A stretch of DNA of 64,000 bases from a virus (IMGVR_UViG_3300021476_000423:32001-96000); one strand, 5' to 3'. Positions 1,591 through 58,355 are shown, numbered from the stretch's first letter. Made by a program: numbers and translations. Notes: generated by a model not told the origin, from the letters alone.

Positions 1591-3519
1591 ATGAGCGATA
1601 AATCGGTGAAGAAAACACTCGACTGGCCTAACTGGAAAGAGCATCAGACTCTACCCGTTCAAGGTCATTACACTGAAGAAGTGCAAGACCAAAGCCAAAA
1701 CCCTAGCCAACAACTCAATCCTACTGAGAATCAGAATATGACCCCTCTCGGACAAAACCAATTTATGCCTACCGCCACTATTGGATATGGGGGAAAGGGC
1801 GAAGGTAGTGTCGTATGCGGAAGGCACAATAAATCGTGGTTTTCTCACACTCAAGCAGAACTTGAAGAGGATATGGCAGAGGGCAAGGTTAGTGCTGAAG
1901 AGGGCACCGAAATCACGCCCGAAGTAGAGGCCGACCTTTCCATCGATGTTGATTGCCCCTCATGCGGTAAGCAGTCCTTCTTAGGGCCGCTAGGCTCTGA
2001 GAATGTCTTCAAGGCTGGCAAGTGGGTGTGCCCCTTCTGCAACTACATTGAGGTTATCGAATCCGAAGAAGACTTGGAAGACTTGCTTTTTAATGTCTTT
2101 GATGATGAAGAGGATTTTACATTGGACGAACAAGATTCGTTAGAATGTCCGATATGTGAGCAAACCTTCAAAGAGGATGAGTTAGACCATCACCTATCCT
2201 TCGCCCACAGTTTGGGGAAGAGTGAAGTCAGCATTCGAAATGTTGACCCTGCTTGGTGCGAAAAGCACAACAAACCAATAGACCTACACAATGGGTTTGA
2301 GATTGATGAAGATACTCGTGAATCAATGGGTAAACCAGAAGAAGTCCAAGGGATGACATCGAAAGATGTGGATACCTTTGTCGGAGGCCGATGCAAACAC
2401 GGAAAGCATATCAATGAACCCTGTGAAGGATGTGACGAAGCGAGACAAGCCGAACTTGAGTATGATTACGAAACTGACGAAGAGGGAGTGGCCGCTATGA
2501 AGGAAGCCCCTCTGACAGACCCAAGAGAAAGAGACAAAGAAAAGGGATTGGATGTTGAAAAGGAGCCGGGTGCAGACCTTTCGCCAGAGGCTCAGAAGAT
2601 TGCAGGAGTTGACCCTGAGAGTAGGGCGCAAAGACAGCAAGAGAAACCCAAGTTGGAAGTGGATATTGACCAGAAGATTACCATCCTTGGAAAGACAGGT
2701 TCGGGTAAGACCAACCTCATCAAAGTTCTCATGTCGGACATCCTACCAGACTACCATTTTGTAGTGTTGGATGCTATTGGCAATCTAACCGAATATGAAG
2801 GTCAGCCTAACGTAGACTATCATCAGACCAATCCTACCAATGATGCTGAAGTTGACCAGATAATCTACTCGGCGCTTGAGAAAGGAGACTGTATGGTTGT
2901 GATAGATGAGGTTGACCGTTACAACTCCAAGAAGGGCACAATGCTCAATGAGTTGGTGAACGTGGGCCGCAACTACGGTGTTGGAGGCGTTTTCGCCGCC
3001 CGTAGAACAGCAAGTATTGATAAGGATGTTTTGGCTAATTCATCCTACATCTTCACTTTCCAGCACATTCTACCACAGGATTTGGACGTTCTCATTGATT
3101 GGTTCGCACAACCAGAAGAGACCTTCCGAGACCTACAAGAGTTTGAGGCCATCCTATTCAAAGACGGAGACCAGATTTGGGTAGGTCTAGTGCCAGAAAA
3201 GCCTACGACCAAGCCAACTAAGAAACCCACTCTTCCCAAGAAACCGAAGCAACCACAACAAAAGGGTAAGGGGCCAGAGCAGAAGGGACAATCACCAGAG
3301 GGTGGGAGCAAACCACCTACCGACGAAGGTGCAGAGAAAGAGCCAGTGGAAAAGAAGCCACCCGAACTAACTCCGGCTGACGAAGGTGAGGTTCAAGCCG
3401 CAGAGAAATCTGAGGCGAGATATGCCGCCGAAGCCCCATTTATGTGTGAAATGGATGGTCAACGGTTTAAGTATGAGAGTGATTTCGAAGACCATATGGT
3501 GAGTCAACACGCCTATTAG
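1591..3519 (+). CDS. HerA/FtsK-superfamily P-loop ATPase embedded in acidic Zn-finger-rich regions
   Basis: Walker A GKTGSGKT, Walker B VVIDEVD and GRNYGV arginine-finger motif. The N-terminal ~350 aa are acidic with CxxC/C2H2 modules; the C-terminal tail is Pro/Lys-rich. Confidence 0.75.
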   Translation: MSDKSVKKTLDWPNWKEHQTLPVQGHYTEEVQDQSQNPSQQLNPTENQNMTPLGQNQFMPTATIGYGGKGEGSVVCGRHNKSWFSHTQAELEEDMAEGKVSAEEGTEITPEVEADLSIDVDCPSCGKQSFLGPLGSENVFKAGKWVCPFCNYIEVIESEEDLEDLLFNVFDDEEDFTLDEQDSLECPICEQTFKEDELDHHLSFAHSLGKSEVSIRNVDPAWCEKHNKPIDLHNGFEIDEDTRESMGKPEEVQGMTSKDVDTFVGGRCKHGKHINEPCEGCDEARQAELEYDYETDEEGVAAMKEAPLTDPRERDKEKGLDVEKEPGADLSPEAQKIAGVDPESRAQRQQEKPKLEVDIDQKITILGKTGSGKTNLIKVLMSDILPDYHFVVLDAIGNLTEYEGQPNVDYHQTNPTNDAEVDQIIYSALEKGDCMVVIDEVDRYNSKKGTMLNELVNVGRNYGVGGVFAARRTASIDKDVLANSSYIFTFQHILPQDLDVLIDWFAQPEETFRDLQEFEAILFKDGDQIWVGLVPEKPTTKPTKKPTLPKKPKQPQQKGKGPEQKGQSPEGGSKPPTDEGAEKEPVEKKPPELTPADEGEVQAAEKSEARYAAEAPFMCEMDGQRFKYESDFEDHMVSQHAY

Positions 3520-3565
3520 TATCCCACCGTGGATACTCGGTAAGTTCGACCCTACTACTTGGTTA

Positions 3566-4273: not shown

Positions 4274-4471
4274 CTAGGAGCCTATTCCATAATTAAGTCT
4301 TATCCAATGGCCTTGTTTTTGCTGAGTGTGCTCTGCTGAACGTCTTTTTATCACCTTGTAAGTCGGCTCATTTTCATCCTTCCAATCACAACTCTGACAG
4401 TAAGCGGAATAGGTATGGCGAGAATCGAGCATGATGGCTTTGTCGAGTTGTTCTTCGTTGGCGTAATTCAT
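4274..4471 (-). CDS. LANQ-motif small protein with C2H2-like finger
   Basis: Starts MNYANEEQLDKA; contains CQSC...H...H; ATGA overlap with the upstream ORF. Confidence 0.7.
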   Translation of the reverse strand: MNYANEEQLDKAIMLDSRHTYSAYCQSCDWKDENEPTYKVIKRRSAEHTQQKQGHWIRLNYGIGS

Positions 4472-4776
4472 GTTTCCACCTTATCCAAATGCACAATGCG
4501 ATTGTGTTTTCCATCTGTTTCGTCATTCACCATACACTTTTCGCAAATGAAAGAATCGCATCCATAACACCAAACGAAATTAGTAACTATCTCACCACAA
4601 TTGAAACAGGGGCCGATGAACTCTGGTATGAATTCCTCTCTGGATAGGTCGTCGGGAAGACCCAAATCGGCTCTCTCTTGGTCGGTAAGGGAAGCACCAT
4701 CAATCGGAACTCTCAGCAGACCATTTCCCTTCTTGAAGAAGGTCTTATTGAGTTCCCCTTGGTTAGCCAATTGCAT
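4468..4776 (-). CDS. LANQ-motif small protein with Cys-rich finger
   Basis: Starts MQLANQGELNK; contains CFNC, CYGC and CEKC. Confidence 0.7.
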   Translation of the reverse strand: MQLANQGELNKTFFKKGNGLLRVPIDGASLTDQERADLGLPDDLSREEFIPEFIGPCFNCGEIVTNFVWCYGCDSFICEKCMVNDETDGKHNRIVHLDKVET

Positions 4777-6518: not shown

Positions 6519-7264
6519 GGGTAATCCACTTGCTCCACTAGGTCGCGGTCATGGTAGATAAGGATTTTGTTCCCTAACAGAGCATAATGTTGGTCTTGGG
6601 GTGACGAATCAACCCTAACAAACCTAGTGGCTCCATGCACTTCTCCCACCTTGAAGGGGCCAGACAAATGGCCAGAGAACCAGATGCGGGGTCGGACTAT
6701 TCCCACCACATCGGTTAGCACTTGAAACTCTTCAGTGGGATGGAATCTCGTTTCATCGGACATAGGAATACTGGCATGAGTGCAAAGCACATCTATCGGC
6801 CCTTTTTGGGCTAGAGTGTTAGCGGCGGCAAGGTATTCTTCTGGTAGAAGTCTAGGAACCCAAGTGATGTCAGTAGTATGCCCTTTGTAGGTCTCTTTGT
6901 AATTCATTCTACGTCTTCTTTCTTTCACATCACCCATGATGCCATTGATGAAACCGAACTTCCAACTCTGTATCATCCGTGTCTCGCCATCTCTAGCCCA
7001 TACTTTACTCCTATCCAGATTCCGAAGCCCCTTCATCATCTGCACATTGTCATGGTTGCCGAAGATGGCGTGAACTTTAACCACTTGAAGTAGGTTCTCC
7101 CATTCCTCTTCATCCCAAGCATACCCCGTATCGCCGCAAAGCACCAAGTCACTTGGTCTATGAAAGTCAACCATCTGAAGCATCCACTTGAGAGCATCCC
7201 CTTCCCACACTCGACCATGAAAATCCTTCTCGTAATGGATGTCAGACATGACCATGATGCTCAT
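6515..7264 (-). CDS. Calcineurin-like metallophosphoesterase
   Basis: SDIH, CGD, GNHD, THA and SGH motifs. Confidence 0.85.
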   Translation of the reverse strand: MSIMVMSDIHYEKDFHGRVWEGDALKWMLQMVDFHRPSDLVLCGDTGYAWDEEEWENLLQVVKVHAIFGNHDNVQMMKGLRNLDRSKVWARDGETRMIQSWKFGFINGIMGDVKERRRRMNYKETYKGHTTDITWVPRLLPEEYLAAANTLAQKGPIDVLCTHASIPMSDETRFHPTEEFQVLTDVVGIVRPRIWFSGHLSGPFKVGEVHGATRFVRVDSSPQDQHYALLGNKILIYHDRDLVEQVDYP

Positions 7265-7488
7265 ATTCCTATGCTCCCAAACATTTGTCTGTGAACCTCT
7301 GCTCTAACTCTTTTCATACCTTCGAGTGTGAGGTCTGCTTCATAAGTAATTTGGCCGTTTTCCCAATGTGCATCAATTATTTTTCCGATAATGTTACCCA
7401 ACTCATCTTTGAGAGGAACGCCCACCATACCATAGCAATTGGCCTTATTCAGTTGTTCTTGGTTGGCCAACCGAAGTTGCTGACTCAT
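7261..7488 (-). CDS. LANQ-motif small protein (likely start 7488, not 7623)
   Basis: MSQQLRLANQEQLNKA; ATGA overlap with the stop of the upstream membrane ORF. Confidence 0.65.
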   Translation of the reverse strand: MSQQLRLANQEQLNKANCYGMVGVPLKDELGNIIGKIIDAHWENGQITYEADLTLEGMKRVRAEVHRQMFGSIGI

Positions 7489-13393: not shown

Positions 13394-13485
13394 TACGTCT
13401 TGCCGTTCTACACAACATTAATAAAGATTTTTGCCGTTTTCCTTGGAAGAGGCTTTAAATAGTTCGGAGGGGGTATACTATACCA

Positions 13486-16208: not shown

Positions 16209-17822
16209 TTAGAGGGTGGCTTTGAGGGTCAGATACCGCTTTTCTGGACAGTAGGAGAATGGGATAGACAATCTAAGTGGTGTCTTCTTGGTCGAGTATT
16301 CCTCTGGAATGTCGGGCCGTCCTTTGATGCCGAGTGCCTTAATCACTTGCTCAACGGGCCAACTCTCTTCGAGCACTTCAAACTCAAGGTCGTCAATCAC
16401 ATTGTCCATCAGATGGAGTTCTGTCCTGTCTGATTCCTCACCCCTATACCAGATGAATCCAAATCCCTCCGCCATGATGTCCATGTCTTCCTGCTCGAAA
16501 TTGTCGCTAATCTCATCGCCATAGTCACCCTCATGAGTGATGTCTGGCACTTTGAAGAAGAAATTGATGCTCTTGTCGGCTCCAACTACCACCATAACTT
16601 TCTCATTCTCATCGTTGAGATAGCCAGTTACATCTCCGGTGCTGGCAGTCGGTGTGACGGGGTGCATATGGACAGTCCCGATGAGTTGTTCCCCTTCGTG
16701 AAGTTGCTCGTTGGGTTCAAGCACAATCTCCCTATCCTTGCCAAACTGTTCACCGACTACCCCTATCTTCCCATGCTCGGCCACGATAAGGAATCCACCT
16801 GCTTCATTGTCATTGGTGACAGAGTATTCAATCATCATCATGAGGTCGTTGTAGAGGCGTTCTGGTATCTCAATTTTATCGGGCAACTCCACACCATCAG
16901 CAGTGTAGGTCTGTGGTTTCATGTGAATCTGAGAATCATCGTCGTCGGTTGGCTCTTTCTCTCCTGTCTCTGGCTCTGGAAGTTTGGGGTCAGGATTCAA
17001 CTCCTTGTCAGGATTGCTAGGGTCTGGTTCTTCTATTTTCTCAGGATACAATCGGGACTTTGGAATTTTTCCTGTGCCATGACACTCTGAACAAGTGCCA
17101 ATATGATGTCCCATTATACGAGACGGTTCTCCTGTTCCATGACACCACGGACAATCTATCATTTCTTGGTCAGGTTCTTTCTTGGTTTGGCCTTTGTCGA
17201 GAATCTTCACGGCTCCCGGCTCAAAAGTAGGGTCGGGCACTGATTTCGCTTCACCAGTCTTTCCAAGTGGAATCTCACCACCCTTCTGAGCATTAGGGCT
17301 GACGGCCTCTTTTAACTTCCAAGTCTCGCCACAATCGTTACAAAGTCCGATGGTTGTGCCAGTTTGACTCTTGGTCTTCTTGGTGTTGTCAGAATTGCAC
17401 CGTGGACAAGTGCCGCCATAATTCTTTCCTGCTTCTTCCTTCGGCTCATCAAGTTCATTGCCCCTATAACCACAAGCCGAACAGTAGATGTCTCCCGTAT
17501 TAAGGTCTATTGAAGCAAGGTCATATTGGCACTCTGGACAAGAAGTCGTATCTCCATTCTCATCGTCTTGTTCTGGTTTACTTGGATTGGTCTTGTCATC
17601 ACAAGATTGGCAGAGCGTAATTCCGCCGGGTATCGGATGTGCTCCTTTCTCACCACAAAGTTCGCAGTAATCTCCCTGTGGGTCACTCTCCTCTTTCAAA
17701 GCAAGGTCTACAGAAGGTTCGGGGTCGTCGAGATAGCCATTGGCATCAGCCCATTTTTCTAACATCCAGTCACTTTTGGTTTTCTTCATCTTCTTAGCCA
17801 TGAGAGTAATGTAATCAACCAT
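16209..17822 (-). CDS. Acidic multi-Zn-ribbon protein with C-terminal JAB/MPN+ metalloprotease domain
   Basis: JAMM motif NEAGGFL...HMHP...STGD; several CxxC pairs including DnaJ-like CxxCxGxG repeats. Confidence 0.75.
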   Translation of the reverse strand: MVDYITLMAKKMKKTKSDWMLEKWADANGYLDDPEPSVDLALKEESDPQGDYCELCGEKGAHPIPGGITLCQSCDDKTNPSKPEQDDENGDTTSCPECQYDLASIDLNTGDIYCSACGYRGNELDEPKEEAGKNYGGTCPRCNSDNTKKTKSQTGTTIGLCNDCGETWKLKEAVSPNAQKGGEIPLGKTGEAKSVPDPTFEPGAVKILDKGQTKKEPDQEMIDCPWCHGTGEPSRIMGHHIGTCSECHGTGKIPKSRLYPEKIEEPDPSNPDKELNPDPKLPEPETGEKEPTDDDDSQIHMKPQTYTADGVELPDKIEIPERLYNDLMMMIEYSVTNDNEAGGFLIVAEHGKIGVVGEQFGKDREIVLEPNEQLHEGEQLIGTVHMHPVTPTASTGDVTGYLNDENEKVMVVVGADKSINFFFKVPDITHEGDYGDEISDNFEQEDMDIMAEGFGFIWYRGEESDRTELHLMDNVIDDLEFEVLEESWPVEQVIKALGIKGRPDIPEEYSTKKTPLRLSIPFSYCPEKRYLTLKATL

Positions 17823-18570: not shown

Positions 18571-19993
18571 GGGCGTATCTAATCGATTTGAGGTTGATGG
18601 CCTTCAGTTGTTCAACATAGACTTTGGCTTGCTCTAGGATGTCCTGTGTCACCACTTCCAGCATATCACTCATGCCACTTATCTCTATGCCAGCCAACCT
18701 TGGAAGATTGTCAACAACTGCCATGTTGATAGCCCCACCCCTTGTGTGAGGGTAGGAATGGGCATAGTGAGCCAGAAGAAATGACCTAACTTCTATGATT
18801 TCGCATGGCTCAATCTCGTCATAGAGACTCCTCTCGTAGAGAGGTTGTCGAGTGAACTCTTTGATGGTCGGCTGATTCCAAAACTTCTGCAAAGTCACTG
18901 TCGCTCTCTCTTCCATCGCCCTATAGGTCTCAATCAGATTCTTTCTCTCAACATCGTCCAACCCCTCTGACCCTGCCTTGTCCTTTACTGGCGTATAGTC
19001 ATTGTATGCGATAATCCCAAATCTGCGTCCCATCGCATATGAGTTCCTGCATAGGTGGGCAAGAATATCTCGCATCACCGATGTATGACTTCCCGATAAT
19101 GCCAATGGATTGGCTGTCGCTATGAATGGGCAAGCCGCAACTATGCGTATGGTTGCGCCCCCTGCTCCTGACAATGACCATCCCTGCTCCAACAATGTCA
19201 TAAGAAGTCCTGCCACGTTCTCTACTGCCAGACTCTCTATCTGCTCTATGGTGAGCGCATAGTGCTGATTGTCAAACAACCCTCTTGCTATGTCGTCTGT
19301 CCACTTGGCCGTTCCAATCAATGTGTTCTTTGTCGTCTTGTCATACCTTGACCCTACGATGTCATAGAACGAAGTTTTGCCAGTGTTAGGTGGCGTTATG
19401 ATGAGAGTATGGGGCTGATATTTCATCACATAGCCATAGGGAATAGCCGCCTTATAGACCGTCTTCAGATTATCATCTGTCTCTCCCTTGTAGGAGATGA
19501 TGTTAGTCACCAAGTCCAACCAGTCTTGAGTTGGCTTCATTGTCCCATAATCGAGATACTTGTTTAGTAGTTGCTCATCAAAGTGGAAAGAGGTCTCAAA
19601 GGTATAGGTAGACAAATCATCCCACTCTTCTATGCGGGGGTCTCTCTCCTGCCCAACCTTCTTGAGAATGTATAGCCTCTCATCTCTATCGAAGATTCCA
19701 TCCAGACGAGAAGGCAAAACTCTGGCCAACGGTAATGAGGTCTTCTTGCTATGGATAACATTCTTGGTGTCTAGAATGTAGGCTGGCGGCGTGGTTGTGG
19801 ATACCATTCCCCTATACAACTTAGCCCCCAAGTTGGCCACAACACCCTCTGGCGTATCATCAAAATCCACTCTCTGATACATCGGCTCAATCATCTCAAA
19901 AACATTGAGCGCCTTGCCCATTTTGGCGTTATTTCCGTTATGACCGTTATTATCTTGGCCCGACAAATTCAACACCCATTGGATTCTGCTCAA
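18554..19993 (-). CDS. MCM-like AAA+ helicase (divergent)
   Basis: Walker A PPNTGKTS, atypical Walker B TIEQIE, sensor-1 IATANP and Arg finger RRF; lies between primase and PolB. Confidence 0.7.
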   Translation of the reverse strand: MSRIQWVLNLSGQDNNGHNGNNAKMGKALNVFEMIEPMYQRVDFDDTPEGVVANLGAKLYRGMVSTTTPPAYILDTKNVIHSKKTSLPLARVLPSRLDGIFDRDERLYILKKVGQERDPRIEEWDDLSTYTFETSFHFDEQLLNKYLDYGTMKPTQDWLDLVTNIISYKGETDDNLKTVYKAAIPYGYVMKYQPHTLIITPPNTGKTSFYDIVGSRYDKTTKNTLIGTAKWTDDIARGLFDNQHYALTIEQIESLAVENVAGLLMTLLEQGWSLSGAGGATIRIVAACPFIATANPLALSGSHTSVMRDILAHLCRNSYAMGRRFGIIAYNDYTPVKDKAGSEGLDDVERKNLIETYRAMEERATVTLQKFWNQPTIKEFTRQPLYERSLYDEIEPCEIIEVRSFLLAHYAHSYPHTRGGAINMAVVDNLPRLAGIEISGMSDMLEVVTQDILEQAKVYVEQLKAINLKSIRYALDQSN

Positions 19994-20198
19994 ATTTCGC
20001 TAAGTTACCTTGATTGACCTGATGCGTATGAGTTCCCTTCACATCAGCATAACACAACGGACATTGACCGTTAATCATCTGAATGAACAAAGTGCTACCC
20101 TTCCACTGATGTTTGATGTATTTCAACTTTCTTTCTAGCCGCCTCATTGCTTCTTGGTCGTGAGCAAAGTTGAGTTTGTCTTGATTGGCGATTTTCAT
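19950..20198 (-). CDS. LANQ-motif small protein
   Basis: MKIANQDKLNFA; CPLC...HTH. Confidence 0.65.
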   Translation of the reverse strand: MKIANQDKLNFAHDQEAMRRLERKLKYIKHQWKGSTLFIQMINGQCPLCYADVKGTHTHQVNQGNLAKFEQNPMGVEFVGPR

Positions 20199-20407
20199 GT
20201 GAATTCACTTTCATCGGTTGTAACGATAGAAATTCCATCAAACGATAAGGCTTGACCTTTTAGTTCGAAAAGCCAATTGAGCCAAAGTCGTGTTGTTTCA
20301 TTTATGATAAGAGAATGATAAGGTGCATTGAACTCTTGCCACTGCTTAACGACTTCATCCCAATCAATTTGAGCATTGTCCAACTGCTGTTGGTTGGCGA
20401 ATTCCAT
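20195..20407 (-). CDS. LANQ-motif small protein
   Basis: MEFANQQQLDNA; TAATG coupling to the PolB stop. Confidence 0.65.
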   Translation of the reverse strand: MEFANQQQLDNAQIDWDEVVKQWQEFNAPYHSLIINETTRLWLNWLFELKGQALSFDGISIVTTDESEFT

Positions 20408-22539: not shown

Positions 22540-22673
22540 ATTTGAACTATACACCCACAATCAAGACCCAATTGAAGAGGAAATCCAAGCCAATAACTCA
22601 TTAGCATCCGATACCCATGTTCTGGACACTTGATAAGATTCCATCCTAATTTGTCTTGATTTGCTAACTTCAT
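22536..22673 (-). CDS. LANQ-motif 45-aa Zn-finger protein (not in track)
   Basis: MKLANQDKLGWNLIKCPEHGYRMLMSYWLGFPLQLGLDCGCIVQI; ATGA overlaps on both ends. Confidence 0.65.
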   Translation of the reverse strand: MKLANQDKLGWNLIKCPEHGYRMLMSYWLGFPLQLGLDCGCIVQI

Positions 22674-35473: not shown

Positions 35474-35508
35474 ACTGAGATAGTAAGGGTTACAGCACTA
35501 TTTAAAGC

Positions 35509-38825: not shown

Positions 38826-41197
38826 TTCTTCTTCACCTTATTCCATATCTCATCTTCTTCCGAGTCTCCCCGAACCTGTTCCCAATAAGAGAGCACCGTA
38901 TCTGAAGATACGACTTTGATACCCTCAAACTGGTCATTTGAGATAATCTTACCATCGTAATTCTCTTTGGGTATCAGAACATATTTAAGTCCATATCTCT
39001 TGGCTCCCCGAATCTTCTCATACACACCACCGATAGCCGAAATCTTGATGTCACCTGCCCTCTCTTCCTTCAATTCCATCGCTCCTGTCATGGCTATGTC
39101 CTGTCTCAATGGGACTGGTATCAACTCGAACTCGGACTTGAGTTTACCAGAGGCTAAATGGGCTTTCCAGCGTTTCTTGAACTCTCTTGGGTCTCCTAAC
39201 CACGACATAAGAGAGACAGTCATAGTGATGCCAGCACTTGGCCCATCTACCTTAGTCTGAGAGAACTTGATGTGAACATAGCAATCCTTCCCTATGTCTA
39301 CGCCGTATATCCTAAGTATGGCTGTTCTGACTTCGCGTTTCGAGTCCTGCACATCGGTTTCATCGCCTCTCACCACACCTGTAACCTCAAAATTGGCATA
39401 GTCGTGAGAATCTACGAATCTGAGGAAAGACTGCACCTGCATTACATCGCCAGCCCCTTCGCCGCCGTGGGGAGCCGCCACTACTGCCAATCCGTTGACC
39501 TGACCTACTTTGGTTCCAACATTCTCTACTAGCGAAATGGCTTCCTTCTTCTCCAATCGATGTTCGATAACCTGCTTCTCGATGGTTTCAGTGTAATGTT
39601 CGATAGCATCTTTCACATGACTGTCTCGAACTATAACATCACCATCCTTCCACGAGAGTTGTGATGACCTCTTGAGCACTTTGATGACGGCTCTGAACAT
39701 CAATTTGATGTGGTCTTTGTCGCTGGCTCTTTGTTTCACATATTCAAGTATGCGCTTTACACCTGCCGCTTCCATAGGTGGAAAGCCGAACCTGTAAAGT
39801 TCGTCCCTTACGACCTGTGCCACAAGCATCTCATTGAGAGGCGTGGCTTCTACCTCATCCTTCAGTGCGATGATGTCACCATAGTTCTCAAACCTGTCTC
39901 TAAGAGCAGGGAATTGATTGATAATGCTATGTGGGTCGTCCAATACATCCAAATTGCCAGCCGCAAAGAGAAAGAACATGGCCTTGACAGGTGGTGTTTG
40001 AATGTTCTGTCCTGCCGTTCCGCCACCGCCGCTAGTGGAAGTATTATCGGCTTGCTGTTGGATAGGAAACTCCCCATCTTCCATTGCAGTCAGAAGTTTG
40101 ATGGCTGATGATTGAGAGAGATTGCGAATCTCATCTATGTAGAGAATCTTCTTGTTGGCTTCATGAATCTTCCCTGCTTGAACTCTACGGTAAGGTGGTT
40201 TGGCCATTGCACCAGTTTGCCACGGAGACCACTCTATCGAGCCAAAGAGGGCGGCATCCGAAACCAGAGTGCAGTTGACATACATTTGAGTTGACTCAGG
40301 GTCATTATCCACAAGTAGATTGGGAATGTGTTTTTGTTCGTTACCCTGTTGTCCGAACATCCAACGCTGTTGCCAGAACATAATCATGATGAACATAGGA
40401 AAGCCTATCATGGTCATTCCCAAACCAAAGTAAACGCTGGCCGAATTCAACAGAGCAGACTCAAAATCCATGCCACCAAGCATATTCAATAACATCTTTC
40501 TAAGACCTAATGAAATCAACATAACCCCAATAAAGATGATAGTCCCAATGCCACCATAGAGCAAAGCGTTTTTCTTACGTCCTTTCTGTGTTTCCTTTAT
40601 TTCGGCATACTCAACTACCTTTTTGGCGGTTCCTGCTGGCTTGATATATCTCACATTGGCCTTGTAGCGATTGATGCGGTCTTCGCCAAGCATAACGTCT
40701 TCAAGTTCGATGCCCTCTTCCTTGTATTTGTCCTTCAGCGATTCGGCCATAACTTTGATAATGAGAGACTTACCAGTGCCGGGTTCACCCAACATAAGAA
40801 TGTTGTTAGTTGGTCTTTCACGCAAAACTGCCGAAAGTTTGACTCCGGCGGCTTCTTTCTTTTCCATCTCCTGAAGTTGTTTCAGAGTGCGAATCCATTC
40901 TATCTCACTAAGGTCAATCTTCTTGAGGGCGGCATCCTGACCGATAATCCAGTCCTTGAACTTCTCTGGCACACGAATGTCATCAGTAGTGTGCTTGGCT
41001 TTGGAGTCGAAGAATTTATCGGTGAAAGCCTTGGGGTCGCTACGCCATTTATCATCTCGAAGGTCGAACTCTGGCTTCAATATCTCCATGTCTCTCTGAA
41101 TCTTTTCCGTTGAAACTTTGATTTCACCAAAGTCATGGTCTTCCTTACCTTCTCTCAGTCGTCTCTTCACTCGTCTAAAGACGCTTGGGATTCTCAT
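38822..41197 (-). CDS. lonB: Archaeal-type membrane Lon protease (LonB)
   Basis: IIGQD, Walker A GEPGTGKS, two TM helices inserted in the AAA+ domain, Walker B YIDEI, GQVNGLAV, catalytic DGPSAG and GGVYEK. Confidence 0.9.
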   Translation of the reverse strand: MRIPSVFRRVKRRLREGKEDHDFGEIKVSTEKIQRDMEILKPEFDLRDDKWRSDPKAFTDKFFDSKAKHTTDDIRVPEKFKDWIIGQDAALKKIDLSEIEWIRTLKQLQEMEKKEAAGVKLSAVLRERPTNNILMLGEPGTGKSLIIKVMAESLKDKYKEEGIELEDVMLGEDRINRYKANVRYIKPAGTAKKVVEYAEIKETQKGRKKNALLYGGIGTIIFIGVMLISLGLRKMLLNMLGGMDFESALLNSASVYFGLGMTMIGFPMFIMIMFWQQRWMFGQQGNEQKHIPNLLVDNDPESTQMYVNCTLVSDAALFGSIEWSPWQTGAMAKPPYRRVQAGKIHEANKKILYIDEIRNLSQSSAIKLLTAMEDGEFPIQQQADNTSTSGGGGTAGQNIQTPPVKAMFFLFAAGNLDVLDDPHSIINQFPALRDRFENYGDIIALKDEVEATPLNEMLVAQVVRDELYRFGFPPMEAAGVKRILEYVKQRASDKDHIKLMFRAVIKVLKRSSQLSWKDGDVIVRDSHVKDAIEHYTETIEKQVIEHRLEKKEAISLVENVGTKVGQVNGLAVVAAPHGGEGAGDVMQVQSFLRFVDSHDYANFEVTGVVRGDETDVQDSKREVRTAILRIYGVDIGKDCYVHIKFSQTKVDGPSAGITMTVSLMSWLGDPREFKKRWKAHLASGKLKSEFELIPVPLRQDIAMTGAMELKEERAGDIKISAIGGVYEKIRGAKRYGLKYVLIPKENYDGKIISNDQFEGIKVVSSDTVLSYWEQVRGDSEEDEIWNKVKKK

Positions 41198-42175: not shown

Positions 42176-43738
42176 ATGAGTAGTGTCAATGAAAGGATGT
42201 TAAACTCTCTAAAAAGGGAGTTCAAAGAGGTCAAAGGTGAGACTCCTAAGAAGATTGAACTCGACCTTTCGGATATCATGGCCTTCGTTGAGAAGCACGT
42301 TAAGATTCCTGAGAAGGCTGGCCCTGATGCTACACAGGATATGTGGTTCGCAAACAGACCGTGGCTCAAAAACCTCTACCACGACGAAAATCCAAACATC
42401 ATCATCGTCAAGGGCAGACAGATGGAAGTATCGGAATATGCCGTCAATTGGATACTTTACCATGCTCTCACCCATCCCGGCAAATTCATCTATGCTTCAG
42501 CATCCGGCTCTAAGGCCGACATCTTCAGCAGAGACAGATGGCAGAAACAATTGAAACGAAGTCCTGACCTTATGCAAATGGTCAGAAATATGGCCGTGAG
42601 AGAGACCGTTCTAAACAAATCAGAAGTCTACTTTTTAACAGCCTTTGAGGATACTGAAACTCTCAGGTCTATCGACGCTGATGCTATCGTGCTTGACGAG
42701 TTTCAGTCTTATCGAGCCAATGCCATTCCTATTGCTCAAGCAGGAATCTCACACTCATCCTTCAAACGAATGCTTGTCATTGGAACTCCAATATTGACAG
42801 GTAGTGGATTTGACAACCTGTGGCAACTTAGTGATATGAAAGAGTTCGACCCTGTGACCAAAACTTGGTCTCCCTCTAATCCGAAGTGGGATGGATTATG
42901 GTCAGGCTATCACATTTCGCAAGAGTTCGCTGTAGGTGTATGGATAACTCCTGAAGAATTCGAGTTCAAGAGAAAACACGCTGAAACTCGGCAAGAGTTC
43001 GAGAACGAAGTATTGGGTCGCTTTTATGCGGGTTTGGGTAGACCAACTGACAGAGTTTACATGGAGACTTTGTTCTCGCCTATGCTCAACAAAGGGTCTT
43101 TCGTCAATGGTGAGTTGCTGATTGCCGGAGTAGATTGGGGCATCACCAAATCCAATACGGTCTTCACTCTCATCCGACCACGACTACTTGAGTTACCAGA
43201 CCTCTATACCATCGATGTTCTGGACGTTGAGAAAATCGACCAAACCGACCTCACTCTTCAAGTAGAGGAGGTGGCCAAACTCATCCGGCAATACCCTATC
43301 TCATTGGTCGTCTGCGACGAAGGGTCTGGACAAATGCAGAACCAATTACTCTGGAAACAATTCAGAGATAAGGTAATCAAAATTCAGATGATGAATGGAT
43401 TCTTATCTACGCCTCTGAAGGTCGAGCCTACCATGTATGGGTCTATGATTAAGGCCAATCGCACCTATGCTATCGACCTCACAATGGACTACATTACCAA
43501 TCCCTCTCGCTTCCGTTTCTACAATGAGCCAGACGAATTGAGAAGAAACTACATCATCAAAGACATTTTGGCCGAATATCCCGAACTCACAGAAGGAACC
43601 GACAAGAAGGTGTGGAAGCACAACGAAGACACCACCGACGATGTGCTTCTCTCATTGACGAATGCCATCGTAGGCTTCCAAATCACAAAGGGCACCGCCG
43701 TCCCACAGGATGTAGGCGATTGGCTTTCGTGGGCTTAG
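42176..43738 (+). CDS. terL: Terminase large subunit
   Basis: KGRQMEVSE Walker A variant, VLDE Walker B, IGTP coupling motif, nuclease GVDWG and DDVLLS. Confidence 0.85.
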   Translation: MSSVNERMLNSLKREFKEVKGETPKKIELDLSDIMAFVEKHVKIPEKAGPDATQDMWFANRPWLKNLYHDENPNIIIVKGRQMEVSEYAVNWILYHALTHPGKFIYASASGSKADIFSRDRWQKQLKRSPDLMQMVRNMAVRETVLNKSEVYFLTAFEDTETLRSIDADAIVLDEFQSYRANAIPIAQAGISHSSFKRMLVIGTPILTGSGFDNLWQLSDMKEFDPVTKTWSPSNPKWDGLWSGYHISQEFAVGVWITPEEFEFKRKHAETRQEFENEVLGRFYAGLGRPTDRVYMETLFSPMLNKGSFVNGELLIAGVDWGITKSNTVFTLIRPRLLELPDLYTIDVLDVEKIDQTDLTLQVEEVAKLIRQYPISLVVCDEGSGQMQNQLLWKQFRDKVIKIQMMNGFLSTPLKVEPTMYGSMIKANRTYAIDLTMDYITNPSRFRFYNEPDELRRNYIIKDILAEYPELTEGTDKKVWKHNEDTTDDVLLSLTNAIVGFQITKGTAVPQDVGDWLSWA

Positions 43739-43782: not shown

Positions 43783-45282
43783 ATGTCGAAGACCAAATAT
43801 GACTGGATGTTGTCCCGATGGCTAGAACAAAACGACATGATGCCCAAAGATAAGCCAGCCGACCTCACTCCTGCCGACCCCTCTGAACAAGCCATTGAGA
43901 AAACTCAACAGCCAGAGATTCCAGCCGCACAGCCTACACAGGAACCAATGCAAACACCACAAGTGCCAGAAGATGAGACTGAGCAAATCAGTGAGATGGT
44001 GGGTGTGGTCAAACCTTGGGAGAAGGTTGACCTCTACTTGGACAATTGGGAGTATCGTGTGTGGGAAGGATGGATGGGAAGCGAACCCGATAAGAAGGCT
44101 GACCTACTTGAAGACGTTCTTCATCAGTTTGACAACAATGCTACTGTGATGAAAGGGCCGTCGAAATCTGACCCTAATGCTATCACCTATTCTTTTAAGT
44201 TCTCGCTTGGTGGTGGGCCAGATGGTGTGGTTGATGCCATCACTAAGATTAACGAAGCCTTTCTCGCTCTTGACCAATACAAAGTTGTCTCTGGCAAACT
44301 CTATGCCATTGTTTACTATGCCGATGGCGAAGAGAACACAATGGATTTGACTCCACAATTGAAAGACAGTAAGGGTGCGGCCAAAGGCGTAGACATCAAT
44401 GATGCAGTCCAAATGGCTCTAGATGCTGTTACTGAAGGTCATGCTCCTGAGAGTCAATGGGAAAGACCAAAGGCGTGTCCTGAGTGCGGTGCTCAACTTC
44501 CTAATTCCAATGATGCTATTGCAGAACACTATGCCAGTAATCATCCTGATGCCGAGATTGCCAATGTCTACAAAGAAGAGGCTTCCGATATGGATGAATG
44601 GGCCTCATGGATGTCTGGTCTTCCCGGCCCAACAACTTCTGACCTTGATGAATATGGGAGACCCTATCGAAAGAGTAGGAGAGCACCTATCAGTCCTAAA
44701 GACTTGGAGAAAGATGAATCCATGCAATTCTGCTCAAAGTGCGGCCAAACACTCGGTATGGGCGAAAGACAATCAGGATTCAACATCTGCCAAAGGTGCA
44801 TCGATGACATAAACGCTGGCAAAGAACCCGGCTCGTGGAAAAATGTGGGTCAGACTTTGGCGCACACTGAAGCACAGATGCCCGACCTTTCCTACCGTGA
44901 AAGCCCGATGGGAGTTAATGCGGCTCAGATTGGACAGGAAGACCAACTAATGAAAGTAGAAGAGATTCTGAAGGAAGTAGAAGACATCTACAGTGAGCAC
45001 GAATTCTACGTCAGAATTCGGGATATGCTTGTTGACCTTGCCAATATCGTGGACATGATTAATGAGCCTACCGCCTCTCCTGCACTAGAACCACAAGCCG
45101 TAGCACCACAGGTTCAACCTCATCTTCAAACTCAAGAGGTTGGCCCCAATAGCGATATGAACAAACAGGAAGCCGTGAAAGACCCAAGCGGTGGGAAACC
45201 CCATACTTACACTCAAGGCAAATTAGGTCAATGTGCCATCTGCGGTCTGCCCGCAACTCATTACAGCCATTACGGATACTGA
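43783..45282 (+). CDS. Acidic Zn-finger mosaic protein (candidate virion cargo)
   Basis: N-terminal KTKYDWMLSRW; CPEC..H..H, CSKC..CQRC and CAIC..H; TTTAAATAG box. Confidence 0.6.
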   Translation: MSKTKYDWMLSRWLEQNDMMPKDKPADLTPADPSEQAIEKTQQPEIPAAQPTQEPMQTPQVPEDETEQISEMVGVVKPWEKVDLYLDNWEYRVWEGWMGSEPDKKADLLEDVLHQFDNNATVMKGPSKSDPNAITYSFKFSLGGGPDGVVDAITKINEAFLALDQYKVVSGKLYAIVYYADGEENTMDLTPQLKDSKGAAKGVDINDAVQMALDAVTEGHAPESQWERPKACPECGAQLPNSNDAIAEHYASNHPDAEIANVYKEEASDMDEWASWMSGLPGPTTSDLDEYGRPYRKSRRAPISPKDLEKDESMQFCSKCGQTLGMGERQSGFNICQRCIDDINAGKEPGSWKNVGQTLAHTEAQMPDLSYRESPMGVNAAQIGQEDQLMKVEEILKEVEDIYSEHEFYVRIRDMLVDLANIVDMINEPTASPALEPQAVAPQVQPHLQTQEVGPNSDMNKQEAVKDPSGGKPHTYTQGKLGQCAICGLPATHYSHYGY

Positions 45283-46464: not shown

Positions 46465-46668
46465 TTAACTGCTAGATGCCTTAGAAGAGAAATAGAAACC
46501 CCACGACATAGCCATCAATCCACTGAAGAACGTGAAGACGTTCTGAAGCAGATTCGAATTGACATTGACCGGATTCACTACGGCAACAACGCCAAAGAGA
46601 CCTGTGAGAATTGTGATTAGTATGGTCAGATAGAAGGGTTTGTCGGCTTGCGGTATTACATCACTCAT
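46465..46668 (-). CDS. Small two-TM holin-like protein
   Basis: Two TM helices ending GFYFSSK. Confidence 0.4.
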   Translation of the reverse strand: MSDVIPQADKPFYLTILITILTGLFGVVAVVNPVNVNSNLLQNVFTFFSGLMAMSWGFYFSSKASSS

Positions 46669-47075
46669 GATTTCTTCTCTCCCTTCCGACCTTTATTAAG
46701 GTTCCTGTTCCGATAGTTGGGAAGATTTCTGAGAGATTCAGGTAAGATACCTCTCTCAATCATCTCTTCGGTGGCCACTATGCAATAGACATTCCAGAGC
46801 CATGCAATGAGATGGTCTTCGTCATCGTCTCCCATGAGCCACTGATTCATATGTCGCTTGGCTGATGCTACAAATCTCTCTTCATCAATCCCCTTCTCCC
46901 AATTACGGGCGGCATACTTGTTGGCTCCTTTGGCAAAGTGTTGCGAAAGACGCATATCGACCATCGGATTCATGAGGTCTGGTCGTGCTTTGTTGTCTTG
47001 AATATCCCTCATAGCCCCTGTCGAAAATTGCACCCGTTTGCCGCTATCCTTCAATGGTTTGTCGATTGGTTTCAT
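46665..47075 (-). CDS. dATP/dGTP diphosphohydrolase-like protein (DUF5664 type)
   Basis: FSTGAMRD..KARPDL, GANKYAARNWEKG, SAKRH and EDHL; likely start MKPID at 47075. Confidence 0.75.
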   Translation of the reverse strand: MKPIDKPLKDSGKRVQFSTGAMRDIQDNKARPDLMNPMVDMRLSQHFAKGANKYAARNWEKGIDEERFVASAKRHMNQWLMGDDDEDHLIAWLWNVYCIVATEEMIERGILPESLRNLPNYRNRNLNKGRKGEKKS

Positions 47076-47620
47076 ATGCCTTCGCCTTGGAGAAAGGAAA
47101 TTACACTGGACAAGGATTCTATCCTTATGCCAACCTTGCATTTCTGATTCCACGGTTGATTGTAAAGAAAGCCAATTTTGCCAATGGCCGTTACCTTTTC
47201 GATTGTATCGCTCCTATCGTCCACAAAAATATGGTAAGGTAGGGCTTCTTTAGTTTTGCCATAAGGCACAATGAGAATTGGAATCTGTCTAAGACCATAC
47301 TTCTCAAGCCATTTTATCTTACCTCCGGCTTGTGGTGGCCCCGCAGATGTGACCACAGTGACATCAGCCAATTCAGCAAGTCTTTCTACCTTCTTCTCAA
47401 TATTAGGTTCTGTCGGTCTGATTTCATCCCACCGATTACCCCATACTTCTCCATAGATTCCTGCCATCTGAGAACCTGTCAAGTGGAACTTGTTCTCATA
47501 CCAATCCCATTCGACGTAATCCTTTTTGGAAGCCAAATAACCAAATGTTTCATTTGCCACTTTAAGAAAGGTATCCATGCTCTCAGCGATTACACTATCC
47601 ATATCCAGAGAAAGTCTCAT
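47072..47620 (-). CDS. HAD 5'(3')-deoxyribonucleotidase
   Basis: DMDSVIA, VTS, KIKWL and FVDD motifs. Confidence 0.8.
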   Translation of the reverse strand: MRLSLDMDSVIAESMDTFLKVANETFGYLASKKDYVEWDWYENKFHLTGSQMAGIYGEVWGNRWDEIRPTEPNIEKKVERLAELADVTVVTSAGPPQAGGKIKWLEKYGLRQIPILIVPYGKTKEALPYHIFVDDRSDTIEKVTAIGKIGFLYNQPWNQKCKVGIRIESLSSVISFLQGEGI

Positions 47621-55319: not shown

Positions 55320-58300
55320 ATGGCCACAGTAGAAGTAGAAGCCTACCAACTCACTCCTGCGGAATATCAAGCAATCACCGACCACGCATGGGCTGGCGAA
55401 ACCTGCCCTGCTTGTCAGGGGCTTCTTCAAAGCATCCAACAGGATAAAGAAGGAAATACTTTCATCTATCCAAATAGTGACCAAGCCCAACACATGAGCG
55501 ACCTGTTCGGCTATTCTGCCGCACCCTATGGAGCCACAACTGGTTATCTCGACCCTGAAGACCCTTCATGGCAAAGGTCTGTAGAACACATTGCCGAGCG
55601 CCAGAAGGGGGGCGAACTTGGGACATTCGGGCCTCAATCGGGTATGGTGCGTGGAGAACCTACCAGAGACGAATGGCAGATTACCAGTTATCTTGATAGT
55701 CTTGGAGTTAAGTATGTTCACAAAATGAAGTTGGGTGAGATTGACCCCACTGAAACCGCAAAACCAAAGGTCGAATATGACATCTATCTGCCCCAATACC
55801 TCATCGCCATTGAAACCTCACCGGGCTGGCACATCGGCGGTAAGAGTCAACAGAGTTTTCCGCAAGTCATTGAGAACGACAAATACAAATCCAACTTTGC
55901 CCAAGAGCATGGCATCGACCTTGTTGCCTTCGACCCCTCAGAAGGGACTGAGAGTTTCATCAACAACGAATTGGTTCCACGGCTTCTGTCGGTGGGTGTG
56001 AAAGCCTATCAAGTGCCAAAGTCTGAAGTTATCTCTCAACATGAATGGAATGAACCTATGGGTGGTGCTCCTGCCTACCAAGAACAGGACGATTATTGGA
56101 GCCGCCAAAAGGCTCCATACCATTGTTCTGACCCCGGTTGCGGAAGACTTTTAGAATGGTGTGAAGATTGTGATTCTCATCATCATGCTGGCCCTTCTTG
56201 GATGCAAGAACACATTGAATTGCAAAAAGCCATGAAAACACCATATTTTGAGGAAGAAGAAAGTGAGATGATGTTGGCGTGTCCTCACTGTGGATGGGAA
56301 GGACGGTCTGATGAAGCACAAGAAAGCATCGGAAAACGTGGTAGACTTGAATATCAATGTCCTCAATGTGGTCAAAAAGATAGAGCAATGCGTATGGGAC
56401 AACTTTACTATGACCTTCATCCAGAGGAGTTGGGAAAGGTTAAAGAACCCAAACCTCATGACCCAACAGATTATTCATGGTATATGGCTCCCTATGAGAT
56501 GCCACAATCGGAACCCGAACCAGAACCACAACCTCAAACACAAATGGAACCAGACATCTCCTCTAGAACCGTGATGTCGCCCTATCAAGAAGCGAGTCTC
56601 AATCAAGGTCAGAATCTTCCTTTGTTCCCTAGTCGTGGAAAAGTCAACACAGTCAATCAAGGCGGCGAAGGGAAGGCTCTTGAGTTTCCTAATCACTTGT
56701 TTCATGAGGAAAACAAAGGTTACAGAATCGAAGGATATAGTAGTTCGGAAGTTACAGATGCTAAAAAGGTCATCGAATATGAAGTAAAAGAACTTGGCAA
56801 TATCCATGTTCTCATTGAAGCATTACAAGCCTTTGGCCTTGAGATACCACTTGAAAGTGACGAAGATGTAGAAGCGGGTCTCAATATTTTATTTGATGCT
56901 ATCGACAGAAAATTTGGGCCAGATGCTCAAGCCATTTGGTTGGTTGATACTGCTGAAGGTGCAAAAGAGCGTTATGGCTTTACCGCAGACGGCGAAACTC
57001 TTGGTGAACCTTCTGAATATGATGTTCCTTCAGATGCCGTTGTGATTAGCAATTTGGGGCCAGAAGAAGGAAAACTCTATCTTATGAAAAGTGAAGAAGA
57101 CCATTTTAACAGTGGTTTCGCACAAGTCGGAGAAGTAGGTGATTTCTTCCTGCATAAGAGTAATGCTACACAAGGAAGGGGGCAAGAGAGTCCGATGCAA
57201 ACGAATTACGGCTATCAGGAAGAATTACCATCTTGTCCTGATTGTGGTAATTCTGAAGTCTATTATGACAACCAAACCGAGAAATATAGATGTCCTGATT
57301 GTGGATGGCATGGTATTCCGAGACGCAAAGCCTACGGCTATTCAGAACCAATCAAACAAGAAGAATCAAATTTACTCACTAAGTTGGCCGATGCCTACAA
57401 CGCCGAGAACGGCTTCAAACCCATTGACGAATCAGTGAAGTCTAAGAAGTTAGATGAGAAAGTAGGAGAACAGGTCGCCGAAACATTTGATGCCGCCGAA
57501 CATGACCCTGCCGACCCCAAAGTGAAAGCGGCCTACGAAGCCCTGAAAGAAGAGTCATTGGCTCAATGGCAATTTGCGAAGGCGAATGGTTACAAACTCG
57601 AAGAGAGCAAAGAAGACCCTTACGACAACTACAAAGAGATGATGGAAGACCTCACAGAGAATCACACTCTCAAGGTATACTCTGAAGGCAATCCGCTACC
57701 GAAAGACCACCCTCTCGCAGAAGAATCGCCTGAAGGAGTTACCTACAACGTCATCTTTAGAGGAATCCACGACCTCTTCGGTCACGCCGCCCACGACAAC
57801 ACTTTCGACAACTTTGAGGGGGAGTTTGCCGCCTTCCTTTGCCATATGCAGATGTTCAGTGAAGAGGCCAGAGGAGCGATGGCCACCGAGACTTTGGCAC
57901 AGACAGAGTGGCAAGAATACATAGGTGGAGTGGGAAACTATCCCGACCAGAAAGCCATCTTCACAGAGATTCCATCAGAATTGATATCCACCGCTAAGAA
58001 AGAAGAAGAACAAGATACTTTGGAAAGAGATTTGGAATCGGAAATAAGTTCTTTTGCTCAACTCTACAGTTTCTCGACCCCCGAAGGCAATCCTATTCCT
58101 CAAAATACGGATGACCTATTAGAAGCAATTGGAACTTGGGGTTACATTGTAGGCGAAATTCCTGTTGAAGAAGCAAAAGGCGGCGATTTGATAGACACAT
58201 TTGGCGGATACACAACGGTTCCACCAATGGTTATCATCTATAAAGATGGACGAGTCGAACTTCCAAAAAGAGAAGAATACCCTACGACTGACCAGAGGTC

Positions 58301-58355
58301 AGAAAAGGGAAATCCTCTTGCGAAGTCACCAATGGTTTTTCGTCATGTAGGATAG
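55320..58355 (+). CDS. Large mosaic (polyvalent) protein: Vsr/DUF559-like nuclease, Zn ribbons and HDxxGH metallo-domain
   Basis: DEWQI..YL..LG...YDIYLP..LIAIE..GWH...DKYK; several CxxC; FRGIHDLFGH...GEFAAF..H...ARGAMATET. Confidence 0.6.
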   Translation: MATVEVEAYQLTPAEYQAITDHAWAGETCPACQGLLQSIQQDKEGNTFIYPNSDQAQHMSDLFGYSAAPYGATTGYLDPEDPSWQRSVEHIAERQKGGELGTFGPQSGMVRGEPTRDEWQITSYLDSLGVKYVHKMKLGEIDPTETAKPKVEYDIYLPQYLIAIETSPGWHIGGKSQQSFPQVIENDKYKSNFAQEHGIDLVAFDPSEGTESFINNELVPRLLSVGVKAYQVPKSEVISQHEWNEPMGGAPAYQEQDDYWSRQKAPYHCSDPGCGRLLEWCEDCDSHHHAGPSWMQEHIELQKAMKTPYFEEEESEMMLACPHCGWEGRSDEAQESIGKRGRLEYQCPQCGQKDRAMRMGQLYYDLHPEELGKVKEPKPHDPTDYSWYMAPYEMPQSEPEPEPQPQTQMEPDISSRTVMSPYQEASLNQGQNLPLFPSRGKVNTVNQGGEGKALEFPNHLFHEENKGYRIEGYSSSEVTDAKKVIEYEVKELGNIHVLIEALQAFGLEIPLESDEDVEAGLNILFDAIDRKFGPDAQAIWLVDTAEGAKERYGFTADGETLGEPSEYDVPSDAVVISNLGPEEGKLYLMKSEEDHFNSGFAQVGEVGDFFLHKSNATQGRGQESPMQTNYGYQEELPSCPDCGNSEVYYDNQTEKYRCPDCGWHGIPRRKAYGYSEPIKQEESNLLTKLADAYNAENGFKPIDESVKSKKLDEKVGEQVAETFDAAEHDPADPKVKAAYEALKEESLAQWQFAKANGYKLEESKEDPYDNYKEMMEDLTENHTLKVYSEGNPLPKDHPLAEESPEGVTYNVIFRGIHDLFGHAAHDNTFDNFEGEFAAFLCHMQMFSEEARGAMATETLAQTEWQEYIGGVGNYPDQKAIFTEIPSELISTAKKEEEQDTLERDLESEISSFAQLYSFSTPEGNPIPQNTDDLLEAIGTWGYIVGEIPVEEAKGGDLIDTFGGYTTVPPMVIIYKDGRVELPKREEYPTTDQRSEKGNPLAKSPMVFRHVG

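Follow-up and report, generated by a model that had tools for sequence, protein, structure and literature searches.

The internal proteins and Alt of phage T4 carry an N-terminal capsid targeting sequence. In phiKZ and SPN3US the head propeptides are cut at A-X-E, and in SPN3US eight head proteins shed N-terminal propeptides of 20-254 residues, the protease itself shedding a C-terminal propeptide (passages of PMC10052503). Another group of candidate cargo is formed by the polyvalent proteins of viruses of the portal-terminase type, which combine two to 15 domains with several effector enzymes per polypeptide; ~35% of them are phage-encoded, and for these packaging in the capsid is predicted, with proteolytic processing of some (PMC5512222; Iyer, Burroughs, Anand, de Souza, Aravind 2017). 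Here we consider seven acidic open reading frames (ORFs) scattered over positions 1591 to 58355 of a 64,000-nt window, bases 32001-96000 of one 106,907-bp virus contig (IMGVR_UViG_3300021476_000423). An earlier inspection of the sequence, the original prediction, had taken them for one family of Zn-ribbon mosaic proteins, loaded into the head, processed there and delivered at infection. Positions are those of the window unless the contig is named.

At the level of sequence, comparison with related genomes establishes that the seven ORFs are separate orthologous families conserved in a ~105-kb lineage of archaeal tailed viruses, and that six of the seven, with the probable prohead protease of the same virus, draw on one lineage-private pool of 20-50-aa modules. 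The predicted cores comprise a HerA/FtsK-type ATPase, a metalloprotease domain like Prok-JAB, a nuclease whose second payload can be exchanged, a possible winged helix and three others. Common to the six and the protease are acidic cores and linkers, segments of fast module turnover and a strong promoter that carries a distinctive extension. The best explanation overall, which we hold tentatively, is that separate conserved acidic families share a common module pool with the prohead protease and have the procapsid as their destination.

Seven acidic families, each conserved on its own

All seven ORFs (starting at 1591, 13486, 17822(-), 43783, 49889(-), 54481 and 55320) are open and translate as first described. 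Their products have a pI of 4.07-5.01, a D+E fraction of 0.168-0.247 and a net charge per residue of -0.066 to -0.184. When acidity was compared within the whole contig (181 ATG-initiated ORFs of at least 50 aa), eight ORFs of at least 150 aa had a net charge per residue of -0.06 or below, and seven of the eight were these proteins. They were rightly called very acidic, being the acidic outliers of the contig; the remaining proteome is of mixed pI, so that the acidity is not a halophile-style bias.

The seven cannot be kept together as a family. An all-against-all BLASTP of the seven proteins gave no match at E<0.01, and their cores are unrelated. IMG/VR searches with two of the seven led to 14 loci, from which three genomes were compared (G001-G003); the two that are complete, with terminal repeats, measure 105,748 and 105,335 bp, and the third 91,434 bp. 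By the Pfam and PHROG matches of its larger ORFs, the virus is a tailed one of archaeal type. Acidic orthologues of the seven stand at conserved positions in all three relatives, each family separate. Within one family the core is 50-80% identical, and the other segments are unalignable, with length differences that reach hundreds of residues. Acidity extends to the cores (D+E 0.17-0.25, vs 0.13 in the core of the protease). The term mosaic has proved apt beyond what was first seen, as the modules that are shuffled cross families and genomes. The relatives G001-G003 also have a Cys-free family of 225 aa that is extremely acidic (net charge ~-0.2; L021:6072-6749 (+) and L028:7762-8442 (+)) and is encoded upstream of RadA-PriX-PolB; the window's genome lacks a counterpart, no known family was matched, and the protein might be a DNA mimic.

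The small Cys/His modules that had been described were found in most of the seven. The numbers of Cys and CxxC are 13 and 4 in 1591, 3 and 1 in 13486, 17 and 8 in 17822(-), 8 and 4 in 43783, 4 and 0 in 49889(-), and 15 and 6 in 55320. Pairs of the CxxC or CxxH type are abundant in five of the seven and one ORF has a single ribbon; the description fails for 54481, which has neither Cys nor CxxC. In Pfam, the modules gave sub-threshold matches only, of the Zn-ribbon, DnaJ-CXXCXGXG and C2H2 types. The linkers are probably disordered, judging from their composition and from the low pLDDT of a poor model.

Three of the families carry the enzyme payloads that had been proposed (ATPase, JAB protease and nuclease), as recognized by Pfam, PHROG and a transitive match to Prok-JAB. 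The first (ATP family, 1591..3519, +) has an N-terminal array of Zn modules, a predicted HerA/FtsK-type P-loop ATPase core at ~2608-3225, and a Lys/Pro-rich and then acidic tail that ends in a C2H2-like finger. The core scores above the curated Pfam cutoffs for DUF87 (1e-7, 32.7 bits vs 23.2) and Pox_A32 (2.4e-5, 24.4 vs 22.8), matches that recur in all three orthologues, and it also matches phrog_2666 (1e-17) and, in part, NCBIfam CedD (3.7e-7). No isolate phage was matched by the ATPase core in tblastn. In the window the gene is divergent from the portal gene, and it adjoins the portal gene in all four genomes, although the virus also has a gpA-type large terminase; it would be a second DNA-pumping ATPase.

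The second enzyme (JAB family, 16209..17822, -) has a variable N-terminal half with ~5 Zn modules, including a DnaJ-like CxxCxGxG pair, then a conserved Pro/Asp-rich linker and a conserved C-terminal domain at ~16248-16925 with the motif E...HxH-x6-S-xx-D. Across 13 IMG/VR loci the core is 69-77% identical and the N-terminal half unalignable, and the motif residues E...HxH...S..D are invariant in seven of seven sequences. The spacer from HxH to S is one residue shorter than in the classic form, and a Pfam scan of the protein itself gave no JAB match. A profile of the C-terminal domain, run against 1.84 billion proteins, retrieved 44 representatives. We scanned 32 of these (the other 12 were close orthologues, very long or very short), and 19 of the 32 matched Pfam Prok-JAB (PF14464), three of them above the cutoff. 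This transitive route supports a Prok-JAB-like metalloprotease domain. A structure model of the domain from seven sequences (pLDDT 39.7) was too poor for a fold search.

The third (NUC family, 55320..58355, +) combines a conserved N-terminal region, in which a nuclease domain is predicted at ~55665-56015, with Zn ribbons. The nuclease domain (aa 116-232) matches phrog_9084 (3.4e-9) and phrog_4538 (4.2e-10), which are annotated as homing or HNH endonucleases. Conservation among orthologues is limited to aa 8-302 and ~420-467. The C-terminal half is genome-specific and contains a phrog_3170 domain at ~57471-57935 (3.1e-18); in the orthologue of G001 (L038:1980-4325 (+)) a SET methyltransferase domain (Pfam, 9.3e-11) replaces it, the second payload being swapped on a conserved nuclease core. 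An Atlas search with the C-terminal half returned unnamed viral clusters only (0.85-0.86).

The other four families are less readily named. P2 (13486..14208, +) is an acidic protein of 240 aa that has a single Zn ribbon and whose conserved core is helical; it has orthologues in G001-G003 and matched no Pfam or PHROG family. P4 (43783..45282, +), encoded directly downstream of the large terminase gene TerL, starts with a DW-containing peptide (43783-43887), continues with a conserved core at aa ~75-225, then Zn ribbons and variable blocks, and ends in a Cys/His knuckle. P5 (48981..49889, -) opens with 40 conserved residues that include two Cys, has shuffled modules in its variable middle and closes with a conserved domain of ~115 aa that is helical; its 31 homologues (196-353 aa) all come from the same virus lineage, and an AF2 model from 21 sequences was poor (pLDDT 50.7) and mostly helices. 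P6 (54481..55005, +) has 174 aa, no Cys and a net charge per residue of -0.184. Its only Pfam matches were faint ones of winged helix-turn-helix type (E 0.07-0.09), and a winged-helix core is possible. In profile and sequence searches of the PDB with JAB, the protease, NUC, P4, P5 and the ATPase, the best E values were 0.007-0.2 and fell on Zn fingers or low-complexity sequence.

A module pool shared with the probable prohead protease

The original prediction had suggested a search for the prohead protease beyond the window, and a probable one is encoded there, a Cys-rich protein of 418 aa (P0008; contig 104194-105450, -). Profiles and gene order make it probable that it is of the S78 (HK97) type. 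Its orthologues (three of three) match phrog_4523, 'major head and protease protein', with E 2.5e-5 to 2.1e-4. The NCBIfam model NF045541, 'prohead protease/major capsid protein fusion', was matched at E 1.2e-4 and 20.8 bits, far below the cutoff. Among the 30 nearest named Atlas clusters, 21 are in the Peptidase_S78 set and two in the S77 set. The gene is followed by a scaffold-like gene, a 145-aa gene and the major capsid protein (MCP) gene. A Pfam scan of the protease and its orthologues gave no S78 match at E<=0.01, and hhalign of the protease alignment with HK97 gp4 was not significant (probability 0.7%). In its 21 homologues, which range from 272 to 589 aa, the core closes in a conserved helix, next comes [LM]-E-[EG], and behind that lie the arrays.

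These arrays are of the kind seen in the acidic proteins, whose variable segments consist of small modules that recur, by BLASTP, across families and genomes. A set of 37 proteins from nine families, searched with composition correction off, gave 44 cross-family high-scoring segment pairs (HSPs) at E<1e-3, linking 14 family pairs, 19 at E<1e-5 and seven at E<1e-8. The pairs joined below 1e-8 were P2-protease, ATP-JAB, ATP-NUC and P5-protease. For example, aa 267-305 of the ATPase protein in the window resemble a JAB-family homologue (62.5% over 40 aa, E 2.7e-9), and the P2 orthologue of G002 has a Cys/His module in common with the protease of G003 (E 1e-24). With a larger set of homologues, P5 and the protease were linked by 78 HSPs at E<1e-4, with 80.6% identity across 36 aa in the best of them. 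The control applied the same settings to 668 ORFs of the four genomes, where two of 635 non-family ORFs were matched at E<1e-3; the control database was ~18 times larger and the thresholds not strictly equal, and the contrast holds at stricter cut-offs. Neither P6 nor the acidic family found only in the relatives had a cross-family HSP at E<1e-3. In the genome as a whole, 29 of the 73 CxxC motifs fall in these proteins, which make up 12% of residues.

Most modules are Zn ribbons, CxxCxGxG pairs, C2H2-like fingers or Cys/His knuckles, with a few non-Cys peptides; Glu-Glu-small linkers join them, and families differ in whether the array is N-terminal, central or C-terminal. One non-Cys module was found with a strict regular expression in 14 of 32 P5, four of 12 P4 and three of 23 protease sequences and in none of 635 background ORFs; a looser form lies directly behind the core in six of 21 proteases, as judged by alignment. 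A cut by the JAB protein after the Gly-Gly of this module was considered and rejected, since the Gly-Gly varies (GS, GA, GD, GP) and no ubiquitin-like fold precedes it. Synonymous-codon identity in the shared modules is 0.24-0.75, near the orthologue baseline of 0.41-0.70, which rules against a recent spread. Modules evidently move between families by recombination, and the exchanges date from roughly the time at which the genomes diverged. No such pool is described in the parts of PMC5512222, PMC10052503 and bioRxiv 10.1101/2025.08.23.671958 that were covered by a limited literature search.

A shared N-terminus with a DW motif had been noticed in the original prediction and read as a capsid-targeting signal. 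In two proteins the likeness is real: aa 12-47 of the JAB protein (17682..17789, -) resemble aa 1-35 of P4 (38.9% identity, E 0.002, BLASTP) and, more closely, the P4 orthologue of locus L001 (48.6%, E 2.9e-5). The two weaker versions find no support as the same element. The P4 peptide is kept in a close clade (four of seven fetched homologues, the other three beginning further in, plus L001 and the window), and the P4 orthologues of G001-G003 open differently. The JAB orthologues of the other six genomes or contigs all begin with a different, mutually conserved peptide, which makes the window's JAB N-terminus the exception among seven. DW occurs within the first 30 aa of four of the seven acidic ORFs vs three of 174 others in the window's genome, a count made post hoc on the data that gave the motif; in three relatives the association was not replicated (one of six, none of seven and one of seven acidic ORFs). 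A targeting signal that is neither conserved in orthologues nor replicated in relatives cannot be upheld, and the DW peptide is instead one exchangeable N-terminal module.

The modules had also been described as bounded by E-A or E-S sites, at which the protease would cut. Against expectations from per-protein shuffles, E-A (33 vs 27.1, z 1.2) and E-S (30 vs 24.1, z 1.3) are explained by composition. A Glu-Glu-small linker does exceed it, as EE[AS] occurs 16 times vs 6.2 expected (z 4.0) and [KQG]EE[AGS] eight times vs 2.0 (z 4.3). After an isolated EE (n=216), A, S and G are enriched 1.75x, 1.66x and 1.38x, and G is 1.85x enriched in the position ahead of it. In 25 of 74 cases EE falls no more than 4 aa from the left boundary of a large indel, vs 9.0 +/- 2.8 at random positions, the boundaries being drawn from noisy pairwise alignments of pairs that are not independent. 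The junction between core and array of the protease, [LM]-E-[EG], is followed by a small residue in most of the 21 orthologues; at the conserved KKKEE site of the P5 family, A, V, C or I comes next. A recombination or target site in the DNA was rejected as the basis of the linker: the Glu codons at junctions are mixed as elsewhere (GAA 19 of 34 vs 904 of 1721), and 16 distinct 15-mers were found among 17 junctions. The linker is thus conserved in the protein only.

Promoters, gene order and the possible destination of the proteins

All seven genes, not just most, were found to have the TATA element of their own that had been ascribed to them, a TATA-like box ~30-39 nt upstream of the ATG (near -33); a genome-wide hexamer scan found such a box at -45..-20 in 29 of 180 ORFs. 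The box TTTAAATA, ~33 nt before the ATG, is a common strong promoter of these viruses and serves structural and some non-structural genes. An extended form, TTTAAATAGT[CT]C, lies upstream of the ATP gene (1552..1563, +) and is repeated at 13454 (+), 43750 (+) and 49923 (-); outside the window, it precedes the protease gene too. Of its 18 occurrences across the four genomes, 14 precede genes of the acidic families or of the protease. Among the 71 TTTAAATA sites of the four genomes, the GT[CT]C extension is present on 14 of 21 family sites vs four of 50 others (Fisher p = 9e-7, post hoc and with orthologues that are not independent). The association suggests co-regulation, or else that promoters move along with N-terminal modules. 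Among TATA variants ~33 nt upstream of starts (for example at 35506 (-), 42168 (-) and 48309 (+)), TTTAAATAG precedes mostly structural-looking and acidic genes, and TTTATA[TA]AG precedes RadA-like, ERCC4, membrane-protein and small-ORF genes; the two may represent two promoter classes.

The acidic genes also keep company with morphogenesis genes. In all four genomes they adjoin portal, TerL, putative connector and head genes, the order TerL -> P4 is kept, and so is the order of MCP, scaffold and protease genes. P5 lies directly upstream of NUC in G001-G003; in the window's genome the two are apart and on opposite strands.

We propose that the acidic proteins could be morphogenesis-linked accessory or effector proteins, akin to the polyvalent or internal head proteins of phages. 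The module pool might then act as a common address or filler grammar by which proteins reach the site where the protease works, the assembling procapsid. The use of the pool by the protease hints at a link to the capsid interior: a capsid protease works inside the procapsid, and for this reason we favour arrays as marks of procapsid-associated proteins, a step that is possible and in itself rather doubtful. Packaging in the virion would have indirect support from this use of the pool, from the gene order and from the promoters. Several points weigh against the proposal. Strongly acidic proteins would be electrostatically awkward beside packed DNA, and the internal proteins of T4 are basic. Many cross-family HSPs are driven by Cys spacing and were scored without composition correction, and the strict regular expression places the shared non-Cys module in just three of 23 proteases. 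One protease orthologue, of 272 aa, carries no array, so arrays are dispensable for the protease. The right boundaries of indels have no excess of EE (12 of 74 vs 9.0). Three of the seven genes (P2, JAB and, in the window's genome, ATP) are also near non-structural genes, and the TTTAAATA box also drives such genes, for example that of the papain-like peptidase, so that it defines no late class. With poor models (pLDDT 39.7 and 50.7) and empty PDB searches, the cores of P2, P4 and P5 lend no functional support.

The most serious rival, which we consider somewhat unlikely, is that the seven are cytoplasmic proteins of host takeover or counter-defence that are never packaged, with the Zn arrays as fast-evolving binding or decoy surfaces. 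Little is known about host takeover by archaeal tailed viruses. The arrays could steer the enzymes towards host chromatin, ubiquitin-like modifiers or defence proteins, and the acidity could keep the Zn ribbons off nucleic acid or mimic DNA. The payloads would suit this role (a nuclease, a SET methyltransferase in the orthologue of G001, a JAB domain), as would the strong divergence of arrays between genomes whose cores are 70-80% identical, which is what an arms race would produce. A capsid protease would have no reason to bear the same arrays, however, and the conserved positions by portal, TerL and head genes would be left unexplained.

A bolder form of the procapsid proposal is that these viruses have the first internal-head or ejection-protein system of an archaeal virus, in which effectors (the nuclease with its SET or other payload, the JAB protein and the ATPase) would be loaded by means of acidic Zn arrays and trimmed by the protease at Glu-Glu-small linkers. 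A beads-on-a-string build would let such cargo pass through the portal and the tail channel. To our knowledge, no packaged-effector system has been described for archaeal tailed viruses, and a full-text literature search on related terms, which was limited, returned none. We regard this form as improbable. It is slightly harder still to believe that there is no common function at all, and that small Zn modules accrete and swap neutrally or selfishly in acidic disordered segments that tolerate them. The array-free protease, the different array positions of the families and codon identities near the baseline, without a sign of recent directed spread, all agree with such accretion; the conservation of the linker in protein and not in DNA argues against a DNA target site, and the restriction to ~7 families and the shared promoter extension suggest selection.

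The full model of the original prediction, in which a DW signal loads proheads, the protease cuts after Glu at E-A/E-S and the ATPase, JAB and nuclease are injected, is the least likely reading: the arrays and the junction of the protease, the excess of EE[AS], and the precedent for A-X-E prohead proteases and the T4 targeting sequence (passages of PMC10052503) speak for it, but DW is unconserved, E-A/E-S match composition, the residue after a conserved EE varies, and the protease looks S78-like rather than like T4 gp21 (S77), so that after-Glu specificity is not transferable.

The virus and comparison with known systems

Other features of the virus fit the assignment to tailed viruses of archaeal type. 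Pfam and PHROG scans identified the portal gene (1-1533, -), a gpA-type TerL (42176-43738) and a tail tube gene (34550-35473), as well as a family-B DNA polymerase, PriX, a RadA/Rad51-like protein and an ERCC4 nuclease. Against isolate phages, TerL found nothing beyond distant terminases of Bacillus and Listeria phages (24-28% identity). The virus is uncultivated; among listed sequencing runs, one DNA run, possibly from the source sample, contains the stretch, and no RNA run does. The head module lies outside the window, with the MCP (contig 102152-103072, -; phrog_1650, 1.7e-11), a Lys/Glu-rich scaffold-like protein (contig 103544-104077, -) and, between their genes on the contig minus strand, the gene of the 145-aa protein. 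G003 holds a second, diverged MCP copy with an N-terminal extension (87524-88423 (-)) besides the regular one (75544-76479).

The window also encodes a LonB-like AAA+ protease (38822-41197, -; Lon_C 6.7e-13, LonB lid 4.3e-6) and a papain-family C1 peptidase (62672-63526, -; 2.2e-13); counting the JAB-like domain and the probable prohead protease as well, this one virus has four proteases. An ORF at 58828-59496 (-) is uS2-like, with a Pfam match to the C-terminal part of ribosomal protein S2 (1e-9), and outside the window there is a RimK-like match to 'ribosomal protein S6 glutaminyl transferase' (L016:3438-4109 (+); phrog_2599, 3.7e-29). Further cargo genes encode a dATP/dGTP diphosphohydrolase-like protein, an NT5C nucleotidase and a LAGLIDADG endonuclease (46665-47620 (-), 61606-62016 (-)). 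Many small ORFs open with a similar peptide, M-x-[LFI]-A-N-x-x-x-L, and continue with unrelated C-termini, some with Zn ribbons; they are found at 4274-4471, 4468-4776, 19950-20198, 20195-20407 and 22670-22855, and outside the window at contig 6588-7485.

A private pool of Zn mini-modules, used by unrelated enzymes and by a capsid protease, is a testable handle on the destination of these proteins. The set offers, besides, a clean natural case of modules shuffled among viral proteins that are not homologous, with a linker conserved at the protein level, and as such bears on how mosaic proteins evolve.

Among described systems, the polyvalent proteins of phages and conjugative elements are similar in being multidomain, with nucleases, peptidases and JAB/RadC-type domains, and in a domain make-up that varies among relatives (PMC5512222). 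Portal and TerL are present here as well, NUC joins a nuclease to a second domain, the ATP and JAB proteins have one enzyme each with Zn modules, and P2, P4 and P5 have no known domain in Pfam or PHROG. The marker domains of polyvalent proteins (MPTase peptidase, ArdC-N and DdrB-ParB) had no Pfam match in the seven proteins (E<=0.1) or in 21 further sequences (E<=0.01), namely 20 orthologues and the window genome's protease P0008. Unlike in polyvalent proteins, the variability resides mainly in tiny Zn-module arrays spread over at least seven separate genes and not in one giant polypeptide, the hosts are archaeal, and the capsid protease itself takes part.

In T4 (internal proteins and Alt) and in the heads of phiKZ and SPN3US, non-structural proteins are loaded with the scaffold and the protease and have long, poorly conserved pro-regions (PMC10052503). 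The acidic proteins differ from these in having no conserved N-terminal signal (it is clear in two of the seven), in a protease that is S78-like and in the putative status of their cleavage and packaging. The tandem C2H2 arrays of eukaryotes are a further parallel, as they too consist of small Zn modules with a short conserved linker and undergo rapid expansion, shrinkage and shuffling; the viral arrays are distinct from them in the many kinds of module, in their strongly acidic context and in the exchange of modules between unrelated viral proteins.

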